A stretch of DNA of 64,000 bases from a virus. Below the pieces are notes generated by a model. The model was given only the letters and a program-made list of their open reading frames with translations, had not been told where the DNA came from and ran no database searches. The stretch's first letter is position 1. Every line of letters starts with the position of its first letter. The stretch covers positions 103,833 to 167,832 of the IMG/VR virus record IMGVR_UViG_3300023276_001086; one strand, given 5' to 3'. A program made the translations under genes and the position numbers. This document shows positions 28,561 through 61,424 of the stretch, one piece after another.

Positions 28561-30537
28561 TTAGTACGATCCAGGCATCGGAGCCCCACCACCGTAGCGG
28601 TAGGGAGCTCCCGACTGCTGGAGGGCCATGCCTCCGCCAACAGCGAGACCGGCCGCGCCGAGTCCGAGACCACCGGCTATGGCGTGCGGGGCGTACTTTA
28701 TTGGACCAGGAATGCGGCCGGCCAGACCCCTGACCCTACCCAGCATCCCTGGAGCCGCTTCTGTAGCCGCTGCGGGCGCTGCCGCTGCGGGCGCTGCCGC
28801 TGCGGGCGCTGCCGCTGACAGGCCCATACCGGCCCGATCTCCCTCGCGCATGCTTTCCAGCAGCTTATTTCGCTGCTGCATGGCCGAAAGCCGATCATCT
28901 ATTGACGCTGCTGGTGATGCAGCAGCTTGTGGGGTCTGTGCGGCTGGTGCTGTTGCAGGTGCGGGCTGCATCACTGGGTTCGCCCGAGCTTCCGCGGACA
29001 CCATCGCCGGTCGTTGCTGTTGAACAGCCCGAGATGGCGCCATCGGAGGCTGCGTGAGTTGACCTGGACCACGACCGCCAGATGCTAATGGCGGCGGACC
29101 GGCTGCTGCTTGTTGTGCGACAGATGGTGCGGCCCTTGGCGGTCCAGCAGCGAGTTGACCTGGACCCTGACCACCAGACGGTAATGCAGGTGGACCCTTG
29201 ACCGGTAGTGTCGGTGTCATCGAAGCTGCCGGCGCGGGAGACGCCTGCATCAACGTCGGTGGCGGTGGGCCGGCTTGAGCAGGAGCGACGCGAGGTGGGC
29301 CGGCTTGAGCAGGAGCGACGCGAGGTGGACCGGCTTGAGCAGGAACAACGCGCGGCGGGCTAGTTAGGGCATTTGGGGATGCAGGAGCTGCTGGTGCACC
29401 ACCAGCGTTCTTCAGACTACTCTGGGCCATTCGAACGCGCTGTTCTGCTATTTGAACAACTTTGGGCTTTGACCCGTGCTCCTTCAATAGGTTGACCAAG
29501 TCTTTTCGCTTGCCGACCTCGTTAGATAGGGTGCGGGACCCCATCCCCTCGAGCTCCTTGGCGTACCCTTCCAGGCGTTTACCGGCTGGGGTCACTCCCC
29601 TTGGCGTTTCCGCCTTGGGCGGAGTTGGCTTTGGCGCTTTCACACCGCCCAATGGTGAGTTTGCGGCACTGACACTTCTAGGAGTCCCTGCACCGGTAGG
29701 CATACCTGTGCTAGCGGGATTTGGGGTATTCACCCTACCGAGTGTTGGGGTGCGCCCCTTGTGCCCAGTACCGAAGGACGCACTACTGTCCATACCGTAC
29801 AGACTCTTAGCTTGTGCTGCGGCGTCATCAGCCGGCATTCCGCCCGAACGGAGCGCGTCGATGAGTTTCTGCTGCTCGGCGCCTACTGGGGGAGCAGCCG
29901 TCGGTGGGGGAGCAGACACGGGTGTAGGCGCCGCGCTGCCCGCAGAGACTACGGGACGTTGAGCAACACCGGCGGTAGGACTGGGCATCCCCCGAGGAGC
30001 GCCTTCAGCAACTGTAAGAGCCCTTGGCGGCTGAGTCATGCCCTGCGGGGCACCGGATACTTGGGTATTTGCCCTCATTCTTGGTGCAGGGGCGGCGGGA
30101 GGTGTGTAGGGCATGCCTTGCGGGGCACCGGATACCTGAGTCTTCGCCCTTACTCTCGGCGCGGGAGTAGGCATCCGCGGTGGGCCAGATACTTGAGTCT
30201 TCGCCGTCAGCCTGGGCTGAACAGGTGGGGCGGCCTTCGCCACACCCTTGACCCCCTTGGCCAACGTAGTCGCGCCCTTGGCCACATCAGCCGCGGTATC
30301 GACCGCCTTGACCCCGCCTTTCGCCACATTTATCGCCGTGGCAAGGACGGCCGTCTTTGTCAGAGACCGCACGGCACCCAGCTTGGAGATACCGCCTCTC
30401 GGCAGCATTATCCGCCGAGCAGCGATCTTCCCCATTTGCTGGGCGCCTTCAGCTCTCAACGCTAACGAGGCGAGCTTCTGGAAGTGCTGCTGGCTCTCTT
30501 CGAGCAGCCAGTCAGCCCTCGTCACGGGCCGTGCCAT
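28561..30537 (-). CDS. low-complexity Pro/Ala/Gly-rich putative virion protein with N-terminal K-x-A sites and a C-terminal Gly-rich hydrophobic segment
   Basis: QKLAS, GKIAA, TKTAV; internal repeats TQVSG x3, PPRVxPAQAG x3, AAAPA x3; AIAGGLGLGAAGLAVGGGMAL. Confidence 0.75.
   Translation of the reverse strand: MARPVTRADWLLEESQQHFQKLASLALRAEGAQQMGKIAARRIMLPRGGISKLGAVRSLTKTAVLATAINVAKGGVKAVDTAADVAKGATTLAKGVKGVAKAAPPVQPRLTAKTQVSGPPRMPTPAPRVRAKTQVSGAPQGMPYTPPAAPAPRMRANTQVSGAPQGMTQPPRALTVAEGAPRGMPSPTAGVAQRPVVSAGSAAPTPVSAPPPTAAPPVGAEQQKLIDALRSGGMPADDAAAQAKSLYGMDSSASFGTGHKGRTPTLGRVNTPNPASTGMPTGAGTPRSVSAANSPLGGVKAPKPTPPKAETPRGVTPAGKRLEGYAKELEGMGSRTLSNEVGKRKDLVNLLKEHGSKPKVVQIAEQRVRMAQSSLKNAGGAPAAPASPNALTSPPRVVPAQAGPPRVAPAQAGPPRVAPAQAGPPPPTLMQASPAPAASMTPTLPVKGPPALPSGGQGPGQLAAGPPRAAPSVAQQAAAGPPPLASGGRGPGQLTQPPMAPSRAVQQQRPAMVSAEARANPVMQPAPATAPAAQTPQAAASPAASIDDRLSAMQQRNKLLESMREGDRAGMGLSAAAPAAAAPAAAAPAAATEAAPGMLGRVRGLAGRIPGPIKYAPHAIAGGLGLGAAGLAVGGGMALQQSGAPYRYGGGAPMPGSY
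29261..29357. repeat. 30-bp tandem repeat x3 (PPRV(A/V)PAQAG)
   Basis: CCGGCTTGAGCAGGAGCGACGCGAGGTGG recurs with a 30-nt period. Confidence 0.85.
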
Positions 30538-31303: not shown

Positions 31304-31912
31304 TCACGTGACTCTTCTGAATTTGGACTTGAGCCTGACTTGCCCAAGACCGGTTCGAGCCTTTCGATCCAGTGGCGCCAACAACACCCCACCCCTGCTC
31401 TGTAACGTATTCAAGTCTCTTTTGCTCATTGCTTCGCCGTAAGACGTGGTGATGAGCTTGCGCAGAGACTTGTCCCTACCAACCGGCGGCACATAAAGTG
31501 AACCGCCAGGGATAGGTTGTTTGATGGCAAAGATCGGGGTACCGGGTGCGTTAGTCTGCACAATCTTCTTGGCCATCCGGGTGTTCACCCTTGTGCCCAT
31601 CATCGAACTGAAGGAGTCCCACAACTTACCCGCCGCCGGTTTGGTGGCCAGTTGTAGACCAAGTTGAACGAGCGGGTGGATACCCGCCTTGGAGGCCCCG
31701 AGAGTAGCAACACCGGCCAAACGGGAGCCTACAAGGCGTTTGCGGTTATCCGTAGCAAGCCGAACAGCTGTCTGCTTCCAGTCGTTCTTTGACATTTGCT
31801 TGTTCGCGTTAGCGTTGAGCGGGATGCCGACCCCCGAATAGAGCATCCCACCTGCTTGCCGTCTGGCAGCAATTTTCTGAAGCTCATCGGAGAATGCGGC
31901 AAGGTCGATCAA
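31304..31912 (-). CDS. leader-bearing (MIDLAAFSDELQKIA) basic cargo protein
   Basis: Leader shared with 35955..36854 and 36851..37423; inserted between sheath and tube. Confidence 0.75.
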   Translation of the reverse strand: MIDLAAFSDELQKIAARRQAGGMLYSGVGIPLNANANKQMSKNDWKQTAVRLATDNRKRLVGSRLAGVATLGASKAGIHPLVQLGLQLATKPAAGKLWDSFSSMMGTRVNTRMAKKIVQTNAPGTPIFAIKQPIPGGSLYVPPVGRDKSLRKLITTSYGEAMSKRDLNTLQSRGGVLLAPLDRKARTGLGQVRLKSKFRRVT

Positions 31913-35125: not shown

Positions 35126-35962
35126 TCAGGTTTTCACGATGACTTCGGCCGGATCGCCCTTTTGGCTACTGAGGACCTCGGTCACTTGGGCCGGACGTCC
35201 TCTAATAGAAGGCGGCCGGACATTGCCCTTTATGTTTTGAAATTCTACAGGATTGCCATCTACTTGCGAAACCCCAGTTCCCCAACCTTCTGACATTCTT
35301 ATGTTCGTCGGTTTGTACGCGTCGCCAACAGCTGCTGTAAGACGAGTCTCAACGGCTTGAAGTACCGGGACGTCTTCTTCGAGCACCTTTGCGCCCCAAC
35401 TGAACTGGAACGGGGTGACTGCGGGAACATTGATCGTTTCCTCTTTCGCAGCACCCTGTACAAGCGATCCCGGTGGAGAAGGGGCGAACACCTGACACCG
35501 TTGACCGATGTCGTGGAACCCGAGCTTGAGTAGTACCCGCCGGAGCAGCCACACATGAGAAGCCACCAACCAGGCGATATCTTCAGCCTCAGACGGTACG
35601 CGTGCGAGGCAGTTGAATGTGAGGTTGCCCGACATCATATCGACGTGTGTACGCTCGCCAGTCCTGACATCCTCGTGGAGAAGCTGATCCATACCCAACC
35701 CACTCCAACCAACGGCTGAGCGGACAAGGGCGATCACAGGTCGCTTCATCACCACGGCCTCTTCGACAGGCACATCCCGGGTAATGATGATCTCGGTCTT
35801 CTCCTCGTCGTCTTCCCAGTGCCAGTATCCTTCGGGTGCGGCCTTGAAGAGCTCACGCAAAAACAGCAGAGTCAACCGCTGAAGATGGCGGAGCGGGCTG
35901 GTAGACCAGCTACTCAAGGCGCCAGGGCTCAGTGGCGCTGAGGGAATGACTTCGTCAGACAT
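35126..35962 (-). CDS. putative tail completion/terminator protein
   Basis: Immediately upstream of the sheath; RPVIALVRS, LTFNCLAR..EAEDIA pattern. Confidence 0.55.
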   Translation of the reverse strand: MSDEVIPSAPLSPGALSSWSTSPLRHLQRLTLLFLRELFKAAPEGYWHWEDDEEKTEIIITRDVPVEEAVVMKRPVIALVRSAVGWSGLGMDQLLHEDVRTGERTHVDMMSGNLTFNCLARVPSEAEDIAWLVASHVWLLRRVLLKLGFHDIGQRCQVFAPSPPGSLVQGAAKEETINVPAVTPFQFSWGAKVLEEDVPVLQAVETRLTAAVGDAYKPTNIRMSEGWGTGVSQVDGNPVEFQNIKGNVRPPSIRGRPAQVTEVLSSQKGDPAEVIVKT

Positions 35963-36854
35963 CCCGTTGACCCTTCGTTACCCCACGCTGGTACGCATCC
36001 TCAAGGCTGCGCTTCTTCTCTTTGTCGAGCTGCCTCTTGTAACCGATCACCGACGCCCCACCGACCATGGGCAACGCGATCGATGCTATTTGGCGGACTT
36101 TGCTACCGGGAGAACCGCGGAACTTCTTCAGACCGTGGCGTACCACTTCGGAGGCGCCGTAGCCGATACCTGTCCCACCAGCGACCAGGGCAGTGTTGCC
36201 GAGGAACTGCTTGATCTTCTCCTTGTTCATCCGCCGGTTCTTATCCTCGGAGGTCTTTGGGAACCCCCGCACCATAGGATCATTCTCGTTAGCTTCCACA
36301 TACTCCTTGGCTGCGGCACGAGCTAATTCATGATGCTTACCCTTAGCAACGGCCCCACCAACCGCCCGGCCACCTGTGTACCCCAGAGCCGCACCAACCG
36401 CACTTGAGAGTAACTTACCAGTTTGCCCCATACCGCCACGGCGCGCTAAAGTATAGCCCAATCCTGCGCCACTCGAGACCCCAGTGATCCCACCAGCAAA
36501 CCGTGCGTGATCCACCCCAGCATCCTGGGCTGCGTTCTTTTGGAGCCTCTTCTTGCGGTATTGCACTGCCGCCGCCATCACTCCCCCGCTTACAAGCGCA
36601 GCTCCTACCGCGGGAGCGACATACCCAGGTGCCCGCAAGTACCGAAGCGTGACACTCTTCTCGCCGGCCTTCACGGCTCGATTTATCTTTCGGCTGTGCC
36701 TGATCGCCTCACCAATACGCATTCCAGTAGGCGCTGCGGCGCCAGAACCGACAGCGGCACCACCAATGACGGCGGCTTTCTCTCCCGTTGAGAGATCCCG
36801 CCCTTTCTCAGCGATCTTGACGAGCTCGTCACTGAATGCGCTGAAGTCGATCAT
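35955..36854 (-). CDS. leader-bearing (MIDFSAFSDELVKIA) multi-glycine-zipper protein
   Basis: Leader, several GxxxG hydrophobic segments, internal QKNA|A site. Confidence 0.8.
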   Translation of the reverse strand: MIDFSAFSDELVKIAEKGRDLSTGEKAAVIGGAAVGSGAAAPTGMRIGEAIRHSRKINRAVKAGEKSVTLRYLRAPGYVAPAVGAALVSGGVMAAAVQYRKKRLQKNAAQDAGVDHARFAGGITGVSSGAGLGYTLARRGGMGQTGKLLSSAVGAALGYTGGRAVGGAVAKGKHHELARAAAKEYVEANENDPMVRGFPKTSEDKNRRMNKEKIKQFLGNTALVAGGTGIGYGASEVVRHGLKKFRGSPGSKVRQIASIALPMVGGASVIGYKRQLDKEKKRSLEDAYQRGVTKGQRDV

Positions 36855-37423
36855 AGATCCCTCAAAAATGCCGGAGTCTCTTCAGGTTTCATGTCCCTAC
36901 CGTAGTTGGCCCTGTAGTAGCGGTTTTCTCGTTCCCACAATGCGTCTCGTACAGGTTTCAGTTCCGCATCTAGCTTCTTGGCGCTCTCAGTCTTCTTTAC
37001 AGCCTTCTCCTTTGCGGCGTCGGCTGTCTCCTTAGCGATGTTGGCCTTTCTCCGCTTGGCGGATTCTTCCATCCGTATCGCTACGTCTTCTTGGTCCGCT
37101 GCTCGCCGCGCTTGGTGCGCCTGATTTGCCTTTGTGCGAGACGCTGCGTCACGAGCCGCCCAGTGACTTCTATCTTTTGCGATACGCGCAGCCCGCGCAC
37201 CACGCTCTTTGAGAACTTGCCCGCCTAAAGCACCACCACCAGCACCAAGAGCCGCACCCCCCAGGCCCCCTATGAGGGCACGTTTCTTCCTACCCTCTTC
37301 GGGACCTGTGAGCCCTCCGATCGCAGCACCCAAACCAGCACCTCCGACACCACCAATGAGCGCCCCTCGGCCGGCGTAAGCAATCTTCTGCATCTCGTCG
37401 GTAAATGCGGAGAAGTCGATCAT
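36851..37423 (-). CDS. leader-bearing (MIDFSAFTDEMQKIA) glycine-zipper 2TM protein
   Basis: GALIGGVGGAGLGAAIGG ... ALIGGLGGAALGAGGGALGG directly after KIA. Confidence 0.8.
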   Translation of the reverse strand: MIDFSAFTDEMQKIAYAGRGALIGGVGGAGLGAAIGGLTGPEEGRKKRALIGGLGGAALGAGGGALGGQVLKERGARAARIAKDRSHWAARDAASRTKANQAHQARRAADQEDVAIRMEESAKRRKANIAKETADAAKEKAVKKTESAKKLDAELKPVRDALWERENRYYRANYGRDMKPEETPAFLRDL

Positions 37424-42655: not shown

Positions 42656-43774
42656 CTAGTAGAAGTTGACAGACGGGAAGAAGACTTCGTCCTCTACCCG
42701 GTTGTTCATCGACCCCAGGTCCTCTTCGTCAGCCGGCGAGACGGCAGCGAGGATACCGTCCGTGTTGGTCGTCGCCGAACCAGAGTAGAGCTCCAGCTTG
42801 CGAACGGCCGCCACGTTGATGATTGACATGGCGATGTCTTCCCACGCTTGCCACGTGATGAGGTTGACCACCTTGTCGATGTAGAACTTGACGTTGTTCA
42901 GGATGTAGAACCGACCCAGGAAGTCGGGGGAGGTGAAGGCGTAGAGGTTTCCGGGGATCAAGATGTCAGTCTTGATCGTCCGAACGAACCCGCGGCCAAC
43001 GAGGGTCTTGTACTTGTAGCCTTCGACCGCAGTCTCAGACTGAAGCTTGGACCCGAAGTCCTCAACCGTCCACTGGTTGACGTCGTCGAAGTCCACCTCG
43101 GTGAGGAGGATTTTCTCGCAGCGAAGTCGGTTGCCATCGAGCAGCTTGTGCAGCTTGATGATGTCCGGACGCTGGAGAGGCCACACGAAGGCGTCGTTGT
43201 TGGTATCCACTCGAGCGAACTCGCCCTTGGCGATGGACGCCTCGACCACGGTGCCGGCAGCGATCGTGGTGTAGTGGAGGTCAGTCGCGCCACCGTTGGC
43301 CTCGACCTGAAGAGCCTGCACCGCAGCTTCGCAGTGGATGAGGAACTCGCGGTCCTCGATCTCCTGGATGTCTTTGATGCTGTTGTCTTCGATGACCTTC
43401 GTGATCTTCATCCTGTACGCCAGGAGCTCCTGCTCGTACTTCTCGAACCTTTCGGACGAGATGGTGAAGAAGGGGACCTCGCAACGAGGCGCGCTGATGA
43501 GTCTGGCGTCGGGCTGACCCCGGAAGTTCATCGCCATCGCACGCGACTCGGGCTCGATCTCCTCAACCATCACGAGGGTGTCGTGGTGGATCGAAGGCTT
43601 CGCATCGTTCTTCGTGACGTTGCGAGGGGGGATGATGTTCCGACAGAAGGCCACTTCACGGAGGTGGTCACGGATGTACTCACCACCGAAAGCGGCAACT
43701 TTCTCTTTGCCCTCAGTCGAGTCGAGCTTGTCGAGGAACATACCGTTGAATACGTCTGCGGGTACTGCTGACAT
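42656..43774 (-). CDS. major capsid protein (HK97-fold)
   Basis: 372 aa; strongly biased codons; downstream of protease/scaffold/decoration genes and followed by a terminator; IRDHLRE..F.R.I.PP and KDIQEIEDREF helix pattern. Confidence 0.8.
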   Translation of the reverse strand: MSAVPADVFNGMFLDKLDSTEGKEKVAAFGGEYIRDHLREVAFCRNIIPPRNVTKNDAKPSIHHDTLVMVEEIEPESRAMAMNFRGQPDARLISAPRCEVPFFTISSERFEKYEQELLAYRMKITKVIEDNSIKDIQEIEDREFLIHCEAAVQALQVEANGGATDLHYTTIAAGTVVEASIAKGEFARVDTNNDAFVWPLQRPDIIKLHKLLDGNRLRCEKILLTEVDFDDVNQWTVEDFGSKLQSETAVEGYKYKTLVGRGFVRTIKTDILIPGNLYAFTSPDFLGRFYILNNVKFYIDKVVNLITWQAWEDIAMSIINVAAVRKLELYSGSATTNTDGILAAVSPADEEDLGSMNNRVEDEVFFPSVNFY

Positions 43775-47152: not shown

Positions 47153-49330
47153 CTACGCTACCCCGCCAAGCACAGCAAGACCGGAGGCCCTCTCCAGTCC
47201 CGCCAAATTACAGTTTGACTCCACGAACTCCGAAACCGGTTCGCCTAGGTAGGCTTCATTGAGATAGGTGGAGGTCAACATTCCGATGACTGATTCCAAC
47301 ACATCCGCCCCTTCTTTGACAAGACCCTCTTCGAGGACACTGTCGCCGCGGAGCGCATGGTGGATCTCTGGGTGAGTAAATACTGCCTGCTTGATCAAGC
47401 CAGCAGATTTGTAGAGTAGATCCCGCCGGTACGCCGAATAGGCCGACGAAACCTTGCTCATCAGTGGGTGATCGAGCTTAGCACAACCGTGCTCTTCTTC
47501 GATATCCGACTTGGGGCCACACTTGATCATGATAATTGTGCGCTTCCCAATAGACGGAGTCATCGCACTCCTCGATCCCATCATGGGGAGTAGTGCAGAG
47601 AGAATCTTCGGGACAATACTGCTGGACAACCGAAAGTCATCCGACGGGGCCGCCCCTGTGCGGAACATGAGCTTCTTGTCGTCGAGCTCGTCCGCCAGGC
47701 CGGGCCGCCCGATGGCCCTGATGTACATGCGCTGGAACTCGCGCGGCTTCGCGACGATCCCCAGGCCCCCTGCTGTGCTCAGGCCGTCGGACATCCGCTC
47801 GGACAACCTGTCCTGAAGGTCTCGAGGCATGTCTGGCTCTTCCCGTTGGAGAGTGGGAAGGCTGCGCCGGAAGCTGGACTGTATCTGCTTGATGATCTCC
47901 GAGCGCTTGTCGAGCGAGCTGGTCTTGATGCGACCGACCGACATCCGCTTGCGCTTCAGGTACTCACCGATGCGCTGCTCGGTTTTGGGGTCCTCCCACT
48001 CGAGGTCACCCAAATCCGAAGCGTTCTTGGTCTTCTCCCAAGCCTGCTCTGCCTTCTTGAGGTCGGCCTGCTGCTGTCGAGTCTTTTCGACGACACCCTC
48101 GGGATCGAGCTTGGCCAGGATGCTCTTCTTGGCCTGATCGATCTGCGCTTTGCTCTTCGGCTTCGCTTGCACACTCGGGCGTGGAAGGCTCCTCGCGATC
48201 TCCTTGATGTTCCTGCTCTCAGCCTTGGCCGCAGCCCGACCGAGACTCAGGCCAAGAGCCCCGCCACCAAGAGCCCCCGTAGCTGCTCCGATGCCCATGT
48301 TGCGGAGGCGGTCCTTCTTCTCACCGACCAACTCACCAAGAGCCGCCCCGGCGGCGCCTCCCCCAAGAACACCAGTGACTACCCCACCCGCTGATGCCAT
48401 CTTCTCCACCCCTCGACCCCACACCTCAGCAACGTGAGCCGAGGGCACACAGTCCGTGTGGTGACAGTTGCCGCAGGCCCTGGTGCCCGGCTGGATAGGG
48501 CACTCGCCAGCGAGCTTGGCCAGGACGAACGAGGTCTTATCTGCCCCGATGAACACCACCGACAGGTCGAAAAACCTGGGGTGCATGTTCTTCATCATGA
48601 CCTTTTTGCCGTCAGGGTAGATCTTGTTGAGCTCGTTCTTCAGGTGGTGACAGTAGTCACCCGTCTCAGTACTCAGACCCGTAATAGGTCGACGCCTGTG
48701 CTCGGCGATGTCCGCTGATGGGTTGAGTGTGATCCTCGACCAATCTGCGCAGTATGAGCAAACGTCGTAGGGAACACGGCAACCCATGCTGACCGAAGGG
48801 AACTCACCGTTCTCCACCCGGTCGATCACACCCGTTGAACCGAACTTGGCCGCTCGAGCGTGGTCGAAGGACACAATGAGGAGAACCCGCTTCATGTGCG
48901 AGTCCCACATCACGTACTCGATGTTGCCGAAAGCCCTGTTCGGATCCTTGTTCTGGTGGTGAGCGAAGGCGTGAGCGTTGTAGAAGGTGGGGTAGCCCCA
49001 CTGCCACTTCCTACCTACGATGATCTGCTGCTCGTGAGGTAGGTCGTTCCAACCTGGTGGTACGTGGAGCAGTGGCTCCTCTGGAAACTCGTCGGCGTTG
49101 GAGTTAGAGCCCCAGTACTCACCAGCCCCGAGGGCGCTGATCAGTGTGTAGAGCTTACCGTTGGTTCGGGGCAACCTCTTCATGAACCGTTGAACAACAC
49201 CAAGCTGCGGTGGGGCGGCGACAGCAGCGGCTTCCTTGATCAAGCCACCATTATCGTACCCAGCCCGCAAGAGCTGGATGTACTCACCGTTCGTGTCTCG
49301 CCCGGCGAACTGACACTGTTTGATAATCAT
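47153..49330 (-). CDS. prohead maturation protease (SH-clan/assemblin-like) with C-terminal extension and embedded glycine-zipper
   Basis: NSNADEF, AHHQNKD (His), SVSMGC (Ser), CSYC..C.H Zn motif, FFDLSVV..GAD; upstream of scaffold and capsid genes. Confidence 0.8.
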   Translation of the reverse strand: MIIKQCQFAGRDTNGEYIQLLRAGYDNGGLIKEAAAVAAPPQLGVVQRFMKRLPRTNGKLYTLISALGAGEYWGSNSNADEFPEEPLLHVPPGWNDLPHEQQIIVGRKWQWGYPTFYNAHAFAHHQNKDPNRAFGNIEYVMWDSHMKRVLLIVSFDHARAAKFGSTGVIDRVENGEFPSVSMGCRVPYDVCSYCADWSRITLNPSADIAEHRRRPITGLSTETGDYCHHLKNELNKIYPDGKKVMMKNMHPRFFDLSVVFIGADKTSFVLAKLAGECPIQPGTRACGNCHHTDCVPSAHVAEVWGRGVEKMASAGGVVTGVLGGGAAGAALGELVGEKKDRLRNMGIGAATGALGGGALGLSLGRAAAKAESRNIKEIARSLPRPSVQAKPKSKAQIDQAKKSILAKLDPEGVVEKTRQQQADLKKAEQAWEKTKNASDLGDLEWEDPKTEQRIGEYLKRKRMSVGRIKTSSLDKRSEIIKQIQSSFRRSLPTLQREEPDMPRDLQDRLSERMSDGLSTAGGLGIVAKPREFQRMYIRAIGRPGLADELDDKKLMFRTGAAPSDDFRLSSSIVPKILSALLPMMGSRSAMTPSIGKRTIIMIKCGPKSDIEEEHGCAKLDHPLMSKVSSAYSAYRRDLLYKSAGLIKQAVFTHPEIHHALRGDSVLEEGLVKEGADVLESVIGMLTSTYLNEAYLGEPVSEFVESNCNLAGLERASGLAVLGGVA

Positions 49331-53063: not shown

Positions 53064-53101
53064 GAGCCCCGACATCCGTCGGGCGCTTCTTCCTTAGCTA
53101 G
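53064..53101 (+). terminator. hairpin + TTCTTCCTTAGCTAG terminator
   Basis: CCCGAC-ATCC-GTCGGG stem, TTAGCT signature; convergent with the terminase stop. Confidence 0.7.
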
Positions 53102-54960
53102 TCATTGGTGAAGTCGACATGGTCGGCACTGGTCGGTACCAGGATGTCTGGTCGGGCCTTGATGAACATCGAAGCGAGGAAGCAGTAGAGGATGGAGTGG
53201 AACGAGTCGTCACTCTTGCCGGGGCTGAGCTTGTACTGGGTCATGTGAATCTGGTGATTGAACTCCGAGAATATATTGAGCATGTCGCTACCGTAGGGCG
53301 TTCGGAACTCCTCGTTCTTAGGGAACCAGATCTTCTGAGCTCGGATAGCGTTGAAGACATCAGCCATGACCTCTGTGCGGTGGAGCATGAAGCGCCCCAG
53401 GTTCGGCTCCCAACTCACCTTCTTCTTGGGCGCCGAGGCGTACTGATACTTCATGACCTTGTTGGCCCCGAAGTTACGCATCAGCCAATCGTTGCGGTCA
53501 AAGCCGCCACCGTAGTCAGAGCCCAGGACAACGAAGTTCACCTGGTTGAGCAACGCCGCGATCTTCTGAAGCTGAAGCTGTGGGTTGAGATCCTCACCCG
53601 TGAACCGGTGGATGTAGAAGATCTGGAACTGCCCGCCCATGTAACCACCCAGAGAGAGGACGGAGTAAGACTCGTTCTCCCCAGTCCCGTGGTCGAGCCC
53701 GGCCGCCACACCGCCGTAACATTTCTTGGCGTTCTCCAGGACGGCGTCCATCTCGTACATACGGATGGTGTCCTGGCAACACACCTCCACCTGCTTCTTC
53801 GTCAGAGGGCGCTGGCCGCTATCGAAGGACAGGCCGAGAACCTCGTTGTTGAACTTGGCGGTCTCGTAGTTCTCGAGTGGGAACAGCACACTGTCGTGCC
53901 AGCCGTCAGGGTCATTGATGATCCAGGGAACCATCAGCTGGTTGACCCGATAACCCTCAAACGCTACGCGGTGGGAATTGTCTTCGGTGACAGGTTGACC
54001 GGCGGCCCACTGAGCCAGGGGGTGCGCTGGGTTGATGGCCCGCTTACACTTCGAACAAACGGGGCCCCTCTTCCCGATGTTGCGCGCACCAAGCACGTTC
54101 CAATACCACGTCTCGGGTTTCGACCCCCCGCAGGCCTCGCACGGAACCAGCCACTCGTTCTGCGTAGAGAACTCCGACCAGTAGGTCTCGATGGTGTTGT
54201 CCATCGACTTCGGCGTGCCCGAGTAACAGAAAATCTTCCAGGGTGAGTGAGACGCGCACTGCTCGATGACCGGCACGTTGGCGAAGATGATGTCCTGAAT
54301 CTCATCAATCAGGATCATGTCCGCTGGGATACCGCGCGTTCGGTCAGCGTTGAGGAACGCGTACCTGATACGGACCTGAGACCGGTTCTTGAACTGCTTG
54401 AACAGCACGTTCTGACTGAGCCCGGAGTCAATGAGGTACGAGAGCTCGGGGCTGATATCGATGGGTTCCTTCAACCGGTCAACTGAGAAGACCGTCGCCT
54501 GGGTAGCAGTGGCGCTGACATACAGCACCTTGAAGCCGTAGTTGATGCCGCAGTAGGCGATGGCCTTGTTGCCCAGCATCGTAGACTTCTCAGTCTGCCG
54601 GGCACACTTCAGGAGCAACCGCCGAGCTGGCGTGTTGTAGGGCGCACGCAGGTAGCGGCGACCATCGAAGCTGAAACGTTGGACATCCCCGCCAACTGGG
54701 ATTCGAATAGAGAACTCAGTGAACTCAGAGGGCGTGGAGAATGTCTTGAGCTTATGGCTGACGACGGCGTCCTCGCCGAACATCACGTTCTCAACTTCAG
54801 CAGCCTCTAGCGCATCGTCCTCGTCACCCATTACGAGGTCGAGCTCATCCTCGAGACCCTGGTTGAGCTCTCCCGCCTCGAGAGCCTCCTTTGCCCGAAC
54901 ATAGAACCCGAGGTCGGTGGCCGGTGAGGAAACGTTGACTGCTGCGCCCATTGTGATCAC
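53098..54960 (-). CDS. terL: terminase large subunit (GpA-like)
   Basis: Walker A KCARQTEKST, Walker B ILIDEIQD, coupling motif SGTP, Zn CxxC pairs, nuclease GLDHG and SDDSFH. Confidence 0.92.
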   Translation of the reverse strand: MITMGAAVNVSSPATDLGFYVRAKEALEAGELNQGLEDELDLVMGDEDDALEAAEVENVMFGEDAVVSHKLKTFSTPSEFTEFSIRIPVGGDVQRFSFDGRRYLRAPYNTPARRLLLKCARQTEKSTMLGNKAIAYCGINYGFKVLYVSATATQATVFSVDRLKEPIDISPELSYLIDSGLSQNVLFKQFKNRSQVRIRYAFLNADRTRGIPADMILIDEIQDIIFANVPVIEQCASHSPWKIFCYSGTPKSMDNTIETYWSEFSTQNEWLVPCEACGGSKPETWYWNVLGARNIGKRGPVCSKCKRAINPAHPLAQWAAGQPVTEDNSHRVAFEGYRVNQLMVPWIINDPDGWHDSVLFPLENYETAKFNNEVLGLSFDSGQRPLTKKQVEVCCQDTIRMYEMDAVLENAKKCYGGVAAGLDHGTGENESYSVLSLGGYMGGQFQIFYIHRFTGEDLNPQLQLQKIAALLNQVNFVVLGSDYGGGFDRNDWLMRNFGANKVMKYQYASAPKKKVSWEPNLGRFMLHRTEVMADVFNAIRAQKIWFPKNEEFRTPYGSDMLNIFSEFNHQIHMTQYKLSPGKSDDSFHSILYCFLASMFIKARPDILVPTSADHVDFTND

Positions 54961-56750: not shown

Positions 56751-58163
56751 TTATGCCCGAATGGGATCGGGGTGACCGGAGAGTGTCTGAAAGATGTCTT
56801 CCCTTGATCGTTTCTTGGCGGGTCCGCGCACACGCCCCACAGGGGACGTACCAGAGAACCGTTTGGCATAAGGTGCCTCTTTGAACCCGACCTTCTTTGC
56901 GGCACCCCGCACAACCTCCAACAACCCAGTCGCTTTCTGTCCAGCAAAACGTGGATGAAGGAGCTTAGAATCCCAGGCTTCTTTCTTGATGAGTGCTTTC
57001 TTCGCACGCCGTTTTTCAAGAAGGGCCATCTGCTCTTTGAGCTTAGATGGGTACTTGACCGCAGTGCCGATACCCATACCGGCACCCATGCCCAGCATTC
57101 CGCCAAGAACCCCACCGCCTAGAGCACCAACGGTACCGAGGTATCTCTCGCCCAAAGAGGCGCCACCAAGACCGCCAGCTATGGCCCCGCCCGTCGAAGC
57201 TATAAGGCCGCCACTACCCAAAGCCCTACCAAATGCCTGGTTCTTAGCGAAGTCCTCACTCTCTGTATCGAGGCGCTCACCTCGGGCCGGTTTGGCGAGA
57301 AATTCCGGAACCCGCTTACGGAGGGGCGCGGCCATAAACTCTGGAAGACCGCCACCCTGCTTCGGTATCCCAGGCGCCTTCCGTGCACGCCGTTTTTCGA
57401 GAAGAGCCATTTGCTCTCTGAGCTTGGCTGGGTACGCGGCCCCTGTTCCGACAGCGCCCCCGGCCAGAGCACCTAAAGCCGCACCACCAACAGCCCCCGG
57501 CACCATGGCCAGGGGATCATGTGCGGTACGACCCGCGATTTGGAAACCGGCTACTCCACCAGCAAGGGCACCTGCTGCGGCACCCGGAAGACCGCCACGC
57601 TCAATGCTTTGGGCACGGGCGTGGCTCTTAGCGAAGTCGTCGCTCTTGCTATCGAGACCCCTACCAGGCTGAAGAAGGTGTTTTGGCCAAGTCAGGTGCG
57701 ACAACGCGGTTGATGTACCCTGCTTCGGCATCCCACCAGCTGACACTGTAGGAGCAGGCGGGGCAGCTGGTGAGGAGACTGGGGTAATCCCCATAGCGGG
57801 GGTCCCCTTCGGCGCTGCCTGTGCGACGCTAGCGGGGTTCGTGATTGCCGGTGGAGGAGGAACCTGCATAGGCGTCGCTGCGCCGGGTCCGGCACCCAGC
57901 ATGGCGTTGGCGCGCTTGTCCAGCCGCACCAAAGCCGCCGCCTTTTTCACCCGATCTGCTGTCTTGCGGTACGACTTGCGTGGCATGGTGTACTTCTCCT
58001 TGGCAGCAGCTTTACCCTCAGGCGTGCCGTAGTTCTTTGGGGTCTTGCCCAGCTTGTGGGCCATTTGCGTAGCGATGGCGAAGGATTGGCTCACGGACAT
58101 GTTCGGGTTCTTGCCCCGAATATGCTGCGCCCTATCATGTATCCAGGCTGGCATTCGTCCCAA
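56751..58163 (-). CDS. polyprotein-like virion protein with two duplicated glycine-zipper modules
   Basis: Modules bounded by KKAA/DKRA, PKQG, PKQG, KKEA; repeat ...S.DFAK..A...GG..G-zipper...YP.KL.EQMALLEKRRA.KA x2. Confidence 0.8.
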   Translation of the reverse strand: MGRMPAWIHDRAQHIRGKNPNMSVSQSFAIATQMAHKLGKTPKNYGTPEGKAAAKEKYTMPRKSYRKTADRVKKAAALVRLDKRANAMLGAGPGAATPMQVPPPPAITNPASVAQAAPKGTPAMGITPVSSPAAPPAPTVSAGGMPKQGTSTALSHLTWPKHLLQPGRGLDSKSDDFAKSHARAQSIERGGLPGAAAGALAGGVAGFQIAGRTAHDPLAMVPGAVGGAALGALAGGAVGTGAAYPAKLREQMALLEKRRARKAPGIPKQGGGLPEFMAAPLRKRVPEFLAKPARGERLDTESEDFAKNQAFGRALGSGGLIASTGGAIAGGLGGASLGERYLGTVGALGGGVLGGMLGMGAGMGIGTAVKYPSKLKEQMALLEKRRAKKALIKKEAWDSKLLHPRFAGQKATGLLEVVRGAAKKVGFKEAPYAKRFSGTSPVGRVRGPAKKRSREDIFQTLSGHPDPIRA

Positions 58164-59399: not shown

Positions 59400-61424
59400 C
59401 TACGCCTCGGGTCCCTGTTGCCGGAAGACGAGCTTCTTCAGCCCAATGATGACCTCATCGAGCCGCTCCATGGCACTCTTCACAGAGTCTTCGGGCACAT
59501 CCTCCAACCCGAGACGGGTGGCCATAAGTAGGCCGGCCAAACGACTAAGCGCGTCCTCGAGGTCGGGGAGCCAGCCCACAAAGGTCCCCACGTTCTCTGG
59601 GTTGATGAAACCGAGAGCGAGAACCTTGTCCACGGTGGTCACGTCATCAAGAGCCGCAGCCTCTTTGAGCAGAGGACTGATGCGGGGCAGCTCTGCCCAC
59701 ATACCCCTTGCCTCTTCTCGGGCCTCTGCCACCTTCTCCGCATAGGTTCCGATGGGGCGGCAACCTTCGACTACCACCGAACCGACTTGTGCAGCCTTGA
59801 CGAGTGTGTTGACAGCGAACTCGGGTTCCAAACCCAGCACGGCAGCCATGAAAGTCGCGTCACCACCATGAAGGCTCTCTCGCCACTCATGAGCTACCTT
59901 CTCCAACGGACGGCCACGGAACGACCAAGTGTTTCCGTCAGAGACGATCTGAACAATGGAACCTGCTTGACGGGCTGACGCCTTCTTGACGAACTCCTTG
60001 GCGTCCTCAATGAGAGGGGTGACGGTCTTACCCAACGGGGCCCAACGAACATCTTCCGGCAGCATGGCTTCGCTGTCACCGAGCTTCACTGGGGCTTTGA
60101 GCTTGCTGTCGAACCTAATCGTGACAGGCTCGCCCATCATCGTTTCGCAGAGATAGCCCACTCCCTTTTCATCGCGAATGGTGGAGTTGATCTCCGTGGG
60201 TTGGAAGGCCATCACTCCCCCAGTCGTGGTGACCCGGTAGAAGAAGCCGTAACCCTCAGGCTTGGCCTTGATGATATTGGTGTCGCGGCCCGCAAAGCTA
60301 CCAACAATTTGTGCCTGAACAGCCGAGGCCGAACCGTTGGTGAACAATGCGAAAGGAAGGGTCACCCCATCGTAGTCCAGTACGTTAGGGAACACCCAGC
60401 CCATGACCTCTTTGCCATCCTTGGTCTTGACCCGGTACTGGCCGAAACGTTCAATCGGCCCAATCTCCTCATCTTCAAGAGCTGCGTGGACCACAGGATT
60501 GGAACTGATAGTGGCCGCGCCGGTCTTGTCGGCAATGGTGACGGTATCCTCACCTGCCATATCAACAGCCGTGTTCCTATCGATATCGTCGACAGTGGGT
60601 TCGAACATCTCACCGTTGGCCATCTTCAGCCGATAAAACTCCCCATGCCGCTCAACCTGGAGAACCGTTGGTGGGATGCTAGCCGAAGCCACCTTCTCCA
60701 CATCGGCAGATGTCATTGGCTCGACTTCCCCCAAGAACTGCAAGAAGGGCAACGCCGCCTCGTTATGTACCAACGCTCGAGTGAGGTGCGCGTCCTTCTC
60801 CAACATCTGCTGCATGCGCAGGAGGTCACCTGCATTGATGGTGTGGGCGATGTGCTCGAGCAAGAACTCGGGCTTGAGCGAGCTCAACTTGGTCTGGGCA
60901 GCATCGACTACCTGGCCGCCCGACATGGCGTGTTGCCGACTGGTCGGTGGGTAGAGCTGACCACCCATCCCGGTATCACCAGACGACGTCCGAGCCGCAT
61001 CGAATACTTGCGGACGGAAGAGTGCCGCACGAAGCCGCTCGTCACTCAGGCGGGAAGGGTTGCCCTTGGCGTCGATGAAAACGTCAAAGGGTTGAAGCTT
61101 GCTGCTCTTGATGATGATCGGTATGCGGAGAAAGCGGACACCCTGAGCGGCCATCTGGGCCTTGGTTCCAGGACCCTGAAGTGTCGTGGCCGACTTGTTG
61201 TGTACCTGGAAGTACCCCGTACCGTAGCCGGCCTCCCCGTCTACCTTCTGCATGACGGGGTTCGTCTCGTAGGTCCCGACGTAGGGGTGCTGCTCCATTA
61301 GAGCCTTGAGCGCTTCCCGCGGCCAAGTGTCCGCCGTTTCAGACAAACGAGTCTCAGATGCCAGCTTCTCAACTACAGGCGGGGTTGTATCCAGGTAGAG
61401 ATCGGGGGTCATGAAATCCTCCAA
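59400..61424 (-). CDS. large virion-module protein with K-x-A sites
   Basis: EKLAS, TKLSS, EKVAS, KKAS, EKVA x2, LKEAA. Confidence 0.7.
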   Translation of the reverse strand: MEDFMTPDLYLDTTPPVVEKLASETRLSETADTWPREALKALMEQHPYVGTYETNPVMQKVDGEAGYGTGYFQVHNKSATTLQGPGTKAQMAAQGVRFLRIPIIIKSSKLQPFDVFIDAKGNPSRLSDERLRAALFRPQVFDAARTSSGDTGMGGQLYPPTSRQHAMSGGQVVDAAQTKLSSLKPEFLLEHIAHTINAGDLLRMQQMLEKDAHLTRALVHNEAALPFLQFLGEVEPMTSADVEKVASASIPPTVLQVERHGEFYRLKMANGEMFEPTVDDIDRNTAVDMAGEDTVTIADKTGAATISSNPVVHAALEDEEIGPIERFGQYRVKTKDGKEVMGWVFPNVLDYDGVTLPFALFTNGSASAVQAQIVGSFAGRDTNIIKAKPEGYGFFYRVTTTGGVMAFQPTEINSTIRDEKGVGYLCETMMGEPVTIRFDSKLKAPVKLGDSEAMLPEDVRWAPLGKTVTPLIEDAKEFVKKASARQAGSIVQIVSDGNTWSFRGRPLEKVAHEWRESLHGGDATFMAAVLGLEPEFAVNTLVKAAQVGSVVVEGCRPIGTYAEKVAEAREEARGMWAELPRISPLLKEAAALDDVTTVDKVLALGFINPENVGTFVGWLPDLEDALSRLAGLLMATRLGLEDVPEDSVKSAMERLDEVIIGLKKLVFRQQGPEA

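Follow-up and report, generated by a model that had tools for sequence, protein, structure and literature searches.

A lineage-variable insert between K-x-A sites in a phage prohead protease precursor that probably carries passengers into the capsid

We analysed a 64-kb stretch of DNA from an uncultured phage (hereafter the window), which is the last part of a 167,832-bp record (IMG/VR record IMGVR_UViG_3300023276_001086) with a completeness rated at 95%. Specifically we focused on the gene at 47153..49330 on the minus strand, whose 725-aa product (P0001, taken from the open reading frame list and its translation) is probably the precursor of a prohead protease. Comparison of this protein with its homologs identified a 125-aa glycine-zipper and basic module as a lineage-variable insert, with both ends located on K-x-A sites that are also conserved in homologs lacking the module. 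These results suggest that the protease probably doubles as a carrier, bringing passengers into the capsid and cutting them free.

The module occupies a variable slot behind the protease domain

The protease family comprises at least 2214 cluster representatives. The results described here refer to a main comparison set of 41 aligned intein-free homologs, a close set of 10 homologs, an N-domain set of 48 sequences and a linker set of 155 family members. Residues 1-312 and about 475-725 are conserved among the 41 homologs, and the stretch aligned to residues 296-490 measures anything from 59 to 333 aa, with unrelated content. The same variability was seen in the linker set, where the distance between the anchors FIGADK and KPREFQR ranges from 92 to 918 aa, with a zipper segment present in only 20 of the 155 linkers.

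The closest homologs were the most informative. P0005, the closest one without an intein (77% identity), has no module, and its two K-x-A sites are five residues apart. In P0003, P0004 and P0005 (77-81% identity) the sequence reads S-K-T-A, then G-K-E-K-V-A, then F...L-E-D-L-E-W-E-D-P, with no module between the sites, while P0002 carries an unrelated insert of ~100 aa whose end, L-L-K-N-A followed by Q-G-L-E-D-L-E-W-E-D-P, is the second site as found in the window protein. This second site varies in its residues (K-N-A then Q in P0002, K-V-A then F in P0003 and P0005, K-K-A then Q in P0004), and in these four proteins it directly precedes a conserved D/E-rich W-E-D-P block. For the first site, a K-x-A occupies the K310/A312 columns in 37 of the 41 homologs and in all 10 members of the close set. 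Since the module is absent or replaced in close homologs that keep both sites, it sits in a slot and not in the protease fold.

A previous sequence-only reading of this DNA had described a basic module of ~125 aa opening at VEKMA-S and closing at TKNA-S, all of which is present (residues 308-313 for the opening, residues 313-437 and an isoelectric point (pI) of 10.2 for the module). It had also set an alignment of orthologs as the check, in which the module should appear as a variable insertion ending on K-x-A, and this is what the 41 homologs show, with P0005 lacking the module and P0002 carrying a different insert. Contrary to that reading, the module lies outside the protease domain, in the linker between this domain and a conserved C-terminal domain.

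In distant relatives the region right behind the protease domain contains InPase, RRM plus InPase (P0076), DUF5661 plus InPase (P0173) or GNAT plus InPase (P0223), and these passenger domains are often interleaved with zipper hairpins ending in K-N-A or K-D-A. The Pfam domain borders lie at most 20 residues from a K-x-A in 22 of 24 cases, compared with 9.9 expected, and a count of 22 was reached in none of 5000 permutations. Since a variable insert with K-x-A ends and folded domains are found in the same slot, the idea of an excisable insert has good comparative support, and the broader proposal of the sequence-only reading, that a passenger is released from an essential head protein, can be considered partly supported. 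We are highly confident of the variable-slot architecture itself, in which the 725 residues are arranged as an N-terminal tail, an assemblin-fold protease, the variable slot, a short linker and the conserved C-terminal domain.

The gene encodes a probable prohead protease

The protease domain (residues 35-312; 48395..49228, minus strand) has the assemblin/T4 gp21 fold and contains H124-H125, S181-M-G and a Cys/His cluster. It is preceded by an N-terminal tail (residues 1-34; 49229..49330, minus strand) that ends in K32-E-A34 followed by A and represents a candidate propeptide; K32 and A34 are invariant in all 48 N-domain sequences, and most of the tail has a predicted local distance difference test score (pLDDT) below 50 (low segments 1-7, 15-26 and 28-38).

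The fold was compared using an AlphaFold2 (AF2) model of residues 1-318 (pLDDT 82.7). The best VIA-align match of this model was the T4 capsid assembly protease gp21 (5jbl_A; Z 9.5, root-mean-square deviation 3.1 Å, 133 of 165 residues aligned), followed by the herpesvirus proteases from varicella-zoster virus (VZV, Z 8.9), human cytomegalovirus (HCMV, 6.5) and Kaposi's sarcoma-associated herpesvirus (KSHV, 5.3). Foldseek against BFVD, which holds predicted viral structures, gave 114 matches at E<=1e-3, many of them named prohead protease and including phage G gp19, which is listed as a head maturation protease in a 2025 study. Because Foldseek of the N-domain against the PDB found nothing at E<=0.001 (the best match being the Epstein-Barr virus protease, E 0.019), the fold was seen only with VIA-align and BFVD. 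Among the proteins in BFVD that match the protease fold, A0A6J5N5R9 and A0A6J5RFH1 are uncultured-phage proteins of 622-679 aa, named as Dps/ferritin-domain proteins, which may be further fusions of a head protease with a passenger.

Sequence searches of the PDB with the protease protein gave chance matches only, with no detectable sequence similarity to herpesvirus protease precursors. The Pfam search of the N-domain found no family in any of the 48 members, S78 and S77 included; these two protease models had no match elsewhere in the genome, and the S77 search also matched 0 of 14 control genomes. In PHROG there was a weak match to phrog_18299 (head maturation protease) with E 4e-4, or 3.3e-8 for the best family member. 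Since no curated family model fits, the protease represents a separate, unmodelled branch.

H125 and S181, spaced 56 residues apart and invariant in the 48 sequences, are the putative catalytic His and Ser. In all nine intein-bearing relatives that were aligned, the intein (Hint + LAGLIDADG, about 370-395 aa) is inserted exactly between G183 and C184, two residues past S181, the presumed catalytic residue (carriers among the relatives: P0002-P0004, P0009, P0010, P0014, P0015 and P0033). Inteins typically insert at active sites. The equivalent point in the window is 48780..48790, and the window gene itself is intein-free.

The gene is part of the head-assembly block, with that of the large terminase (53098..54960; phrog_675, E 1e-50) upstream of it and that of the major capsid protein (42656..43774; phrog_2522) downstream, and the order terminase, protease, capsid protein is kept in the window and in four related metagenomic contigs. 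With the structural model and these observations in hand, we consider the product to be probably a phage prohead (head-maturation) serine protease, which, judging from the candidate sites, would cut both the capsid protein and itself.

K-x-A as a putative cleavage code

Both ends of the slot carry the same short motif, and the distribution of this motif makes K-x-A (sometimes K-x-S) the likely cleavage code of the protease family. The head-module proteins of the window contain 13 E-K-x-A motifs compared with 2.5 expected, a number reached by none of 1000 shuffles, and the 155 family linkers contain 834 K-x-A compared with 330 expected, with no enrichment of R-, E-, Q-, D-, T-, S- or L-x-A in the same linkers. 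In the linkers the favoured residues are Leu or Met (P5), Glu (P4) and, at P1', Ser, Glu, Ala or Gly.

The motif is also found at residues 15-34 of the capsid protein (K-E-K-V-A then A, residue 27) and of about ten further head-module proteins. The relatives L004, L005 and L007 retain the site of the capsid protein, as do the cultured phages Arash and Vibrio phage D69, and N-terminal K-x-A motifs are present on head proteins of phage G as well. More broadly, head-module proteins of the cultured phages L001 (Salmonella phage Arash), L002 (Vibrio phage D69) and L003 (Bacillus phage G), among them the capsid proteins of Arash and D69, have a K-x-A at a distance of about 20-30 residues from the N-terminus. 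Since the motif is present in cultured phages, the putative code could be tested in culturable systems.

The sites in the window protein are predicted to be accessible, with residues 32-34 and 310-312 lying in segments with pLDDT <50 and A437 closing a helix before a disordered loop. A further candidate, K475-R-S477, marks the end of the linker and the start of the C-terminal domain, and corresponds to K-x-A or K-x-S in all 41 homologs.

Composition of the module and of its surroundings

The module (residues 313-437; window 48394..48020) has 125 aa and 12.7 kDa, with 22 K+R against 12 D+E. It is opened by site 1 (K310-M-A312 followed by S313, in V-E-K-M-A then S at residues 308-313; 48395..48403, minus strand) and closed by site 2 (K435-N-A437 followed by S438; 48020..48028, minus strand), after which comes a low-confidence loop at residues 438-446. 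The first 57 residues form a glycine-zipper hairpin (residues 313-369; 48224..48394, minus strand), with two Gly/Ala-rich segments containing 9 GxxxG motifs and linked by EKKDRLRN, a charged loop of 8 residues. In the whole protein, the 19-residue windows of highest hydrophobicity fall in these two segments (Kyte-Doolittle values of 1.52 and 1.29). Weak matches to PF13441, PF05433 and PF13488 cover residues 316-360; the match to Gly-zipper_YMGG (PF13441; E 8.4e-5) reached 22.6 bits, under its cut-off of 28.9 bits, and that to a second glycine-zipper model 17.8 bits, under its cut-off of 24.2 bits. The remainder is a basic helical tail (residues 370-437; 48020..48223, minus strand; K+R 16, D+E 9, pI 10.0), in or near which AF2 placed helices at 366-381, 394-407 and 410-437, the last of them stopping exactly at A437. 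Slippage was considered as the origin of the module and ruled out, since its DNA contains no tandem repeat.

Downstream of the module, a short conserved linker (residues 438-474; 47909..48019, minus strand) can be aligned among close homologs, and is followed by the helical C-terminal domain (residues 475-725; 47156..47908, minus strand), conserved in 41 of 41 homologs and with pLDDT mostly >90. Fold searches with the C-domain, which alone was barely searched, gave no clear match to a solved structure, the hits being coiled-coil matches to its long helix and one uncharacterised family member. A capsid or scaffold docking role is presumed for this domain.

The window also encodes a stand-alone zipper protein (36851..37423, minus strand; PF13441 E 0.0034), consisting of a K-I-A leader, a zipper, the loop GPEEGRKKR, a second zipper and a basic tail. 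In a search without composition correction, none of the other window proteins and none of 255 homologs matched the module as well as this protein (43.1 bits over 130 columns, nearly the whole module); 30 shuffled modules used as a control gave a mean of 26.5 bits and a maximum of 34.7. Thus the sequence-only reading was right in giving both the same layout, in the order zipper, GPEEGRKKR and zipper for the stand-alone protein, but the likeness was lost under composition correction. We conclude that the shared zipper layout is real, and that common descent is only suggested by the sequences.

This stand-alone protein is one of three, together with those from 31304..31912 and 35955..36854 (minus strand in all cases), that share a near-identical 15-residue leader, M-I-D-x-x-A-F-x-D-E-x-x-K-I-A, followed by unrelated Gly-zipper or basic bodies, and the similarity among them breaks off abruptly at K-I-A. 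The same leader was seen in the relative L005 (L005:21143-21454). Zipper hairpins are widespread in the structural genes of the window, occurring in those starting at 35955, 38309, 39122, 46114, 49985 and 56751 (two copies) and at the C-terminus of that starting at 28561. The 470-aa protein from 56751..58163 (minus strand), which is among the best matches of the module, has an internal duplication, each copy comprising a Gly-zipper hairpin and an L-K-E-Q-M-A-L-L-E-K-R-R-A block. The 658-aa protein from 28561..30537 (minus strand), with no PHROG match, is extremely rich in Pro, Ala and Gln, with repeated P-P-R-V-A-P-A-Q-A-G units, and combines several N-terminal K-x-A sites with its C-terminal zipper segment.

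Proposed release and retention of the module

The reading that we favour, with middling confidence, is that of a self-processing protease precursor that carries, releases and retains a zipper/basic passenger. The precursor would be built into the prohead via its conserved parts, with the 125-residue glycine-zipper/basic module entering as an in-frame passenger. Cuts after A312 and A437 would free the module, so that the K-x-A cuts would yield the N-terminal tail, the protease domain, the module, a 40-residue linker and the C-domain. The module would then be kept in the head, where it would be a small, basic internal protein with membrane activity, resembling the leader-bearing zipper proteins from nearby genes. 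What we observed here are the protease fold with its conserved His and Ser, a slot of variable content, the conservation of both border sites, and the enrichment and placement of K-x-A; from these we infer cutting, retention and function. Release of the module is somewhat probable, and its action as injected or membrane-active cargo is a tentative proposal.

Retention is favoured over disposal because a 113-residue stretch of the module is free of K-x-A, because purified virions of Arash contain its homolog, gp222 (84.9% sequence coverage in the Arash paper), and because enzymes occupy the slot in relatives. These three points bear directly on the alternative that survives best, a disposable spacer. 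In this scenario, which we regard as rather unlikely, the slot is an unconstrained linker whose zipper/basic piece helps to fill or organise the core of the prohead in the manner of a scaffold, after which it is excised and either degraded or expelled, with no role after assembly. Linker length and content do drift freely, in most homologs the linker is short and featureless, no relatives of the module were detected, and in T4 and HK97 protease and scaffold fragments exit the head. However, the scaffold-like neighbour proteins are peppered with sites (6-11 each), unlike the module, and a piece of 12.7 kDa would be large for escape via the capsid pores.

It is also quite improbable that no excision takes place, with K-x-A being a structural or docking motif (for instance a helix-end signature or a binding peptide) and the module staying within an uncut multidomain protein. 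The high sequence coverage of Arash gp222 would fit an uncut protein too, and both the lack of demonstrated cleavage and the conserved K272-L-A274 inside the fold, discussed below, would agree with it. Against this, the position of the motif 15-34 residues from the N-terminus of the capsid and many other head proteins is the usual cutting zone of prohead proteases, the similarity among the paralog leaders stops at K-I-A, and the sites fall in low-confidence loops or at helix ends. Moreover, Ala at P1 with Ser at P1' is the cleavage pattern of herpesvirus assemblins. Finally, a membrane tether, in which the zipper hairpin anchors the assembling prohead core in the inner membrane until the flanking K-x-A cuts free the head at maturation, would suit the hydrophobic zipper segments, the several other head-module proteins with such segments directly past K-x-A sites and the protease-deficient SPN3US proheads that remain bound to the inner membrane (SPN3US literature), but is very improbable, since a zipper found in so few of the family linkers cannot be a core assembly feature, and its hydrophobicity is under the usual transmembrane threshold.

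Several results weigh against the self-processing carrier that we favour. K-x-A cleavage has been experimentally demonstrated in no family member, the Arash paper and its supplement containing no peptide-level data. K272-L-A274, a conserved K-x-A, is on a predicted strand inside the protease fold; therefore not every K-x-A is a cleavage site, and context must matter. Site 2 (K-N-A) does not have the usual Glu at P4. The homologs are mutually related, so the enrichment counts are not independent and the statistic on the domain borders overstates independence. As for the module, AF2 confidence is low for the zipper region, its likeness to the protein from 36851..37423 is weak, composition-corrected BLASTP found no similarity between them (E 44), and a search of 5.8 billion proteins (68-219 aa) with the module alone returned no match at E<=0.01, and hence no stand-alone twin.

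A generalisation of the carrier reading, which we put forward as speculative, is that the stretch between protease and C-domain is a general cargo slot of the family. Any module placed between K-x-A sites would be carried into the prohead at the copy number of the protease and cut free, K-x-A would predict, from sequence alone, which proteins of these phages are packaged and injected, and zipper hairpins would be the membrane-active or packing part.

Relation to known systems

The closest parallel by fold is the T4 capsid-targeting system, in which a head protease of the same fold, gp21, cuts IPI-III and Alt. These proteins share a short leader with the protease motif at its end, behind which the basic cargo differs from one protein to the next. 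The three leader genes of the window resemble this arrangement, with leaders ending in K-I-A. The T4 motif is (L/I)-x-E, cut after E, whereas the motif here is K-x-A. The passenger described here also differs in lacking a leader and in being internal to the protease precursor, so that two cuts are needed.

The protease-scaffold precursor of the herpesviruses (UL26 in herpes simplex virus (HSV), UL80a in cytomegalovirus (CMV)) likewise combines in one chain an N-terminal assemblin-fold protease, an Ala (P1)-Ser (P1') release site, and a C-terminal assembly domain. In these precursors the part past the release site is the scaffold and not a swappable passenger.

In giant phages, the proteases gp175 of phiKZ and gp245 of SPN3US recognise a short motif at which they remove propeptides from many head and ejection proteins, and they undergo self-processing as well. 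With the exception of the propeptide from self-cleavage of the protease, all cleavages identified for SPN3US gp245 give N-terminal propeptides, and that work describes no protease with an excisable passenger inside it.

Polyvalent proteins (Iyer et al. 2017, PMC5512222) combine several unrelated effector domains in a single chain that is packaged in the virion, and a peptidase has been proposed to cut them apart. InPase and GNAT, both found in the slot of distant relatives, are hallmark domains of these virion-packaged proteins, and assemblin-like peptidases are rare in them and always C-terminal (Iyer et al. 2017, PMC5512222). In contrast, the protease here is N-terminal, with the passengers located between it and a conserved C-domain and with K-x-A as a defined separator. 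The combination of at least two effector domains with a peptidase was seen in P0076, P0223 and P0173, whereas the window protein has a single, non-enzymatic zipper/basic passenger.

Lastly the hairpin, with two hydrophobic GxxxG- and small-residue-rich helices and a short charged loop, has the pattern of the Glycine zipper 2TM and YMGG-like domains (PF05433, PF13441). It differs from these families in scoring under their Pfam cut-offs and in belonging to a phage head protein rather than to a bacterial outer-membrane lipoprotein.

Since the ingredients are already known from T4 leaders, the herpesvirus protease-scaffold precursor with its Ala-Ser sites, propeptide removal in giant phages and polyvalent proteins, the general idea is not wholly new. 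In the literature we found no description of an N-terminal head protease with a swappable internal slot bracketed by a defined K-x-A separator in so large a family, nor anything on glycine zippers in virions or on a protease-pyrophosphatase fusion. If K-x-A does serve as the cleavage code, one could read from sequence the mature termini of the capsid protein and of numerous head proteins, and also which proteins are packaged. This would hold for a large group of mostly uncultured phages, among them Arash, Vibrio phage D69 and megaphage G. If the carrier reading is true, an essential protease serving as a swappable carrier would represent a new route for loading proteins into capsids, including pyrophosphatase-like, acetyltransferase and RNA-binding domains, and would lend itself naturally as a template for engineered phage heads that deliver proteins.

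Other genes in the window and related contigs

Two further genes were seen outside the region discussed above. In L004, a related contig of 198 kb, a TnpB/IS605 OrfB-type gene (Cas12f-like; L004:2547-3758) is located directly upstream of the large terminase gene, with a slight overlap. In the window, 59400..61424 (minus strand) encodes a 674-aa protein with no PHROG match and five E-K-x-A motifs, one of them at residue 19, which may be the portal or another processed head protein.

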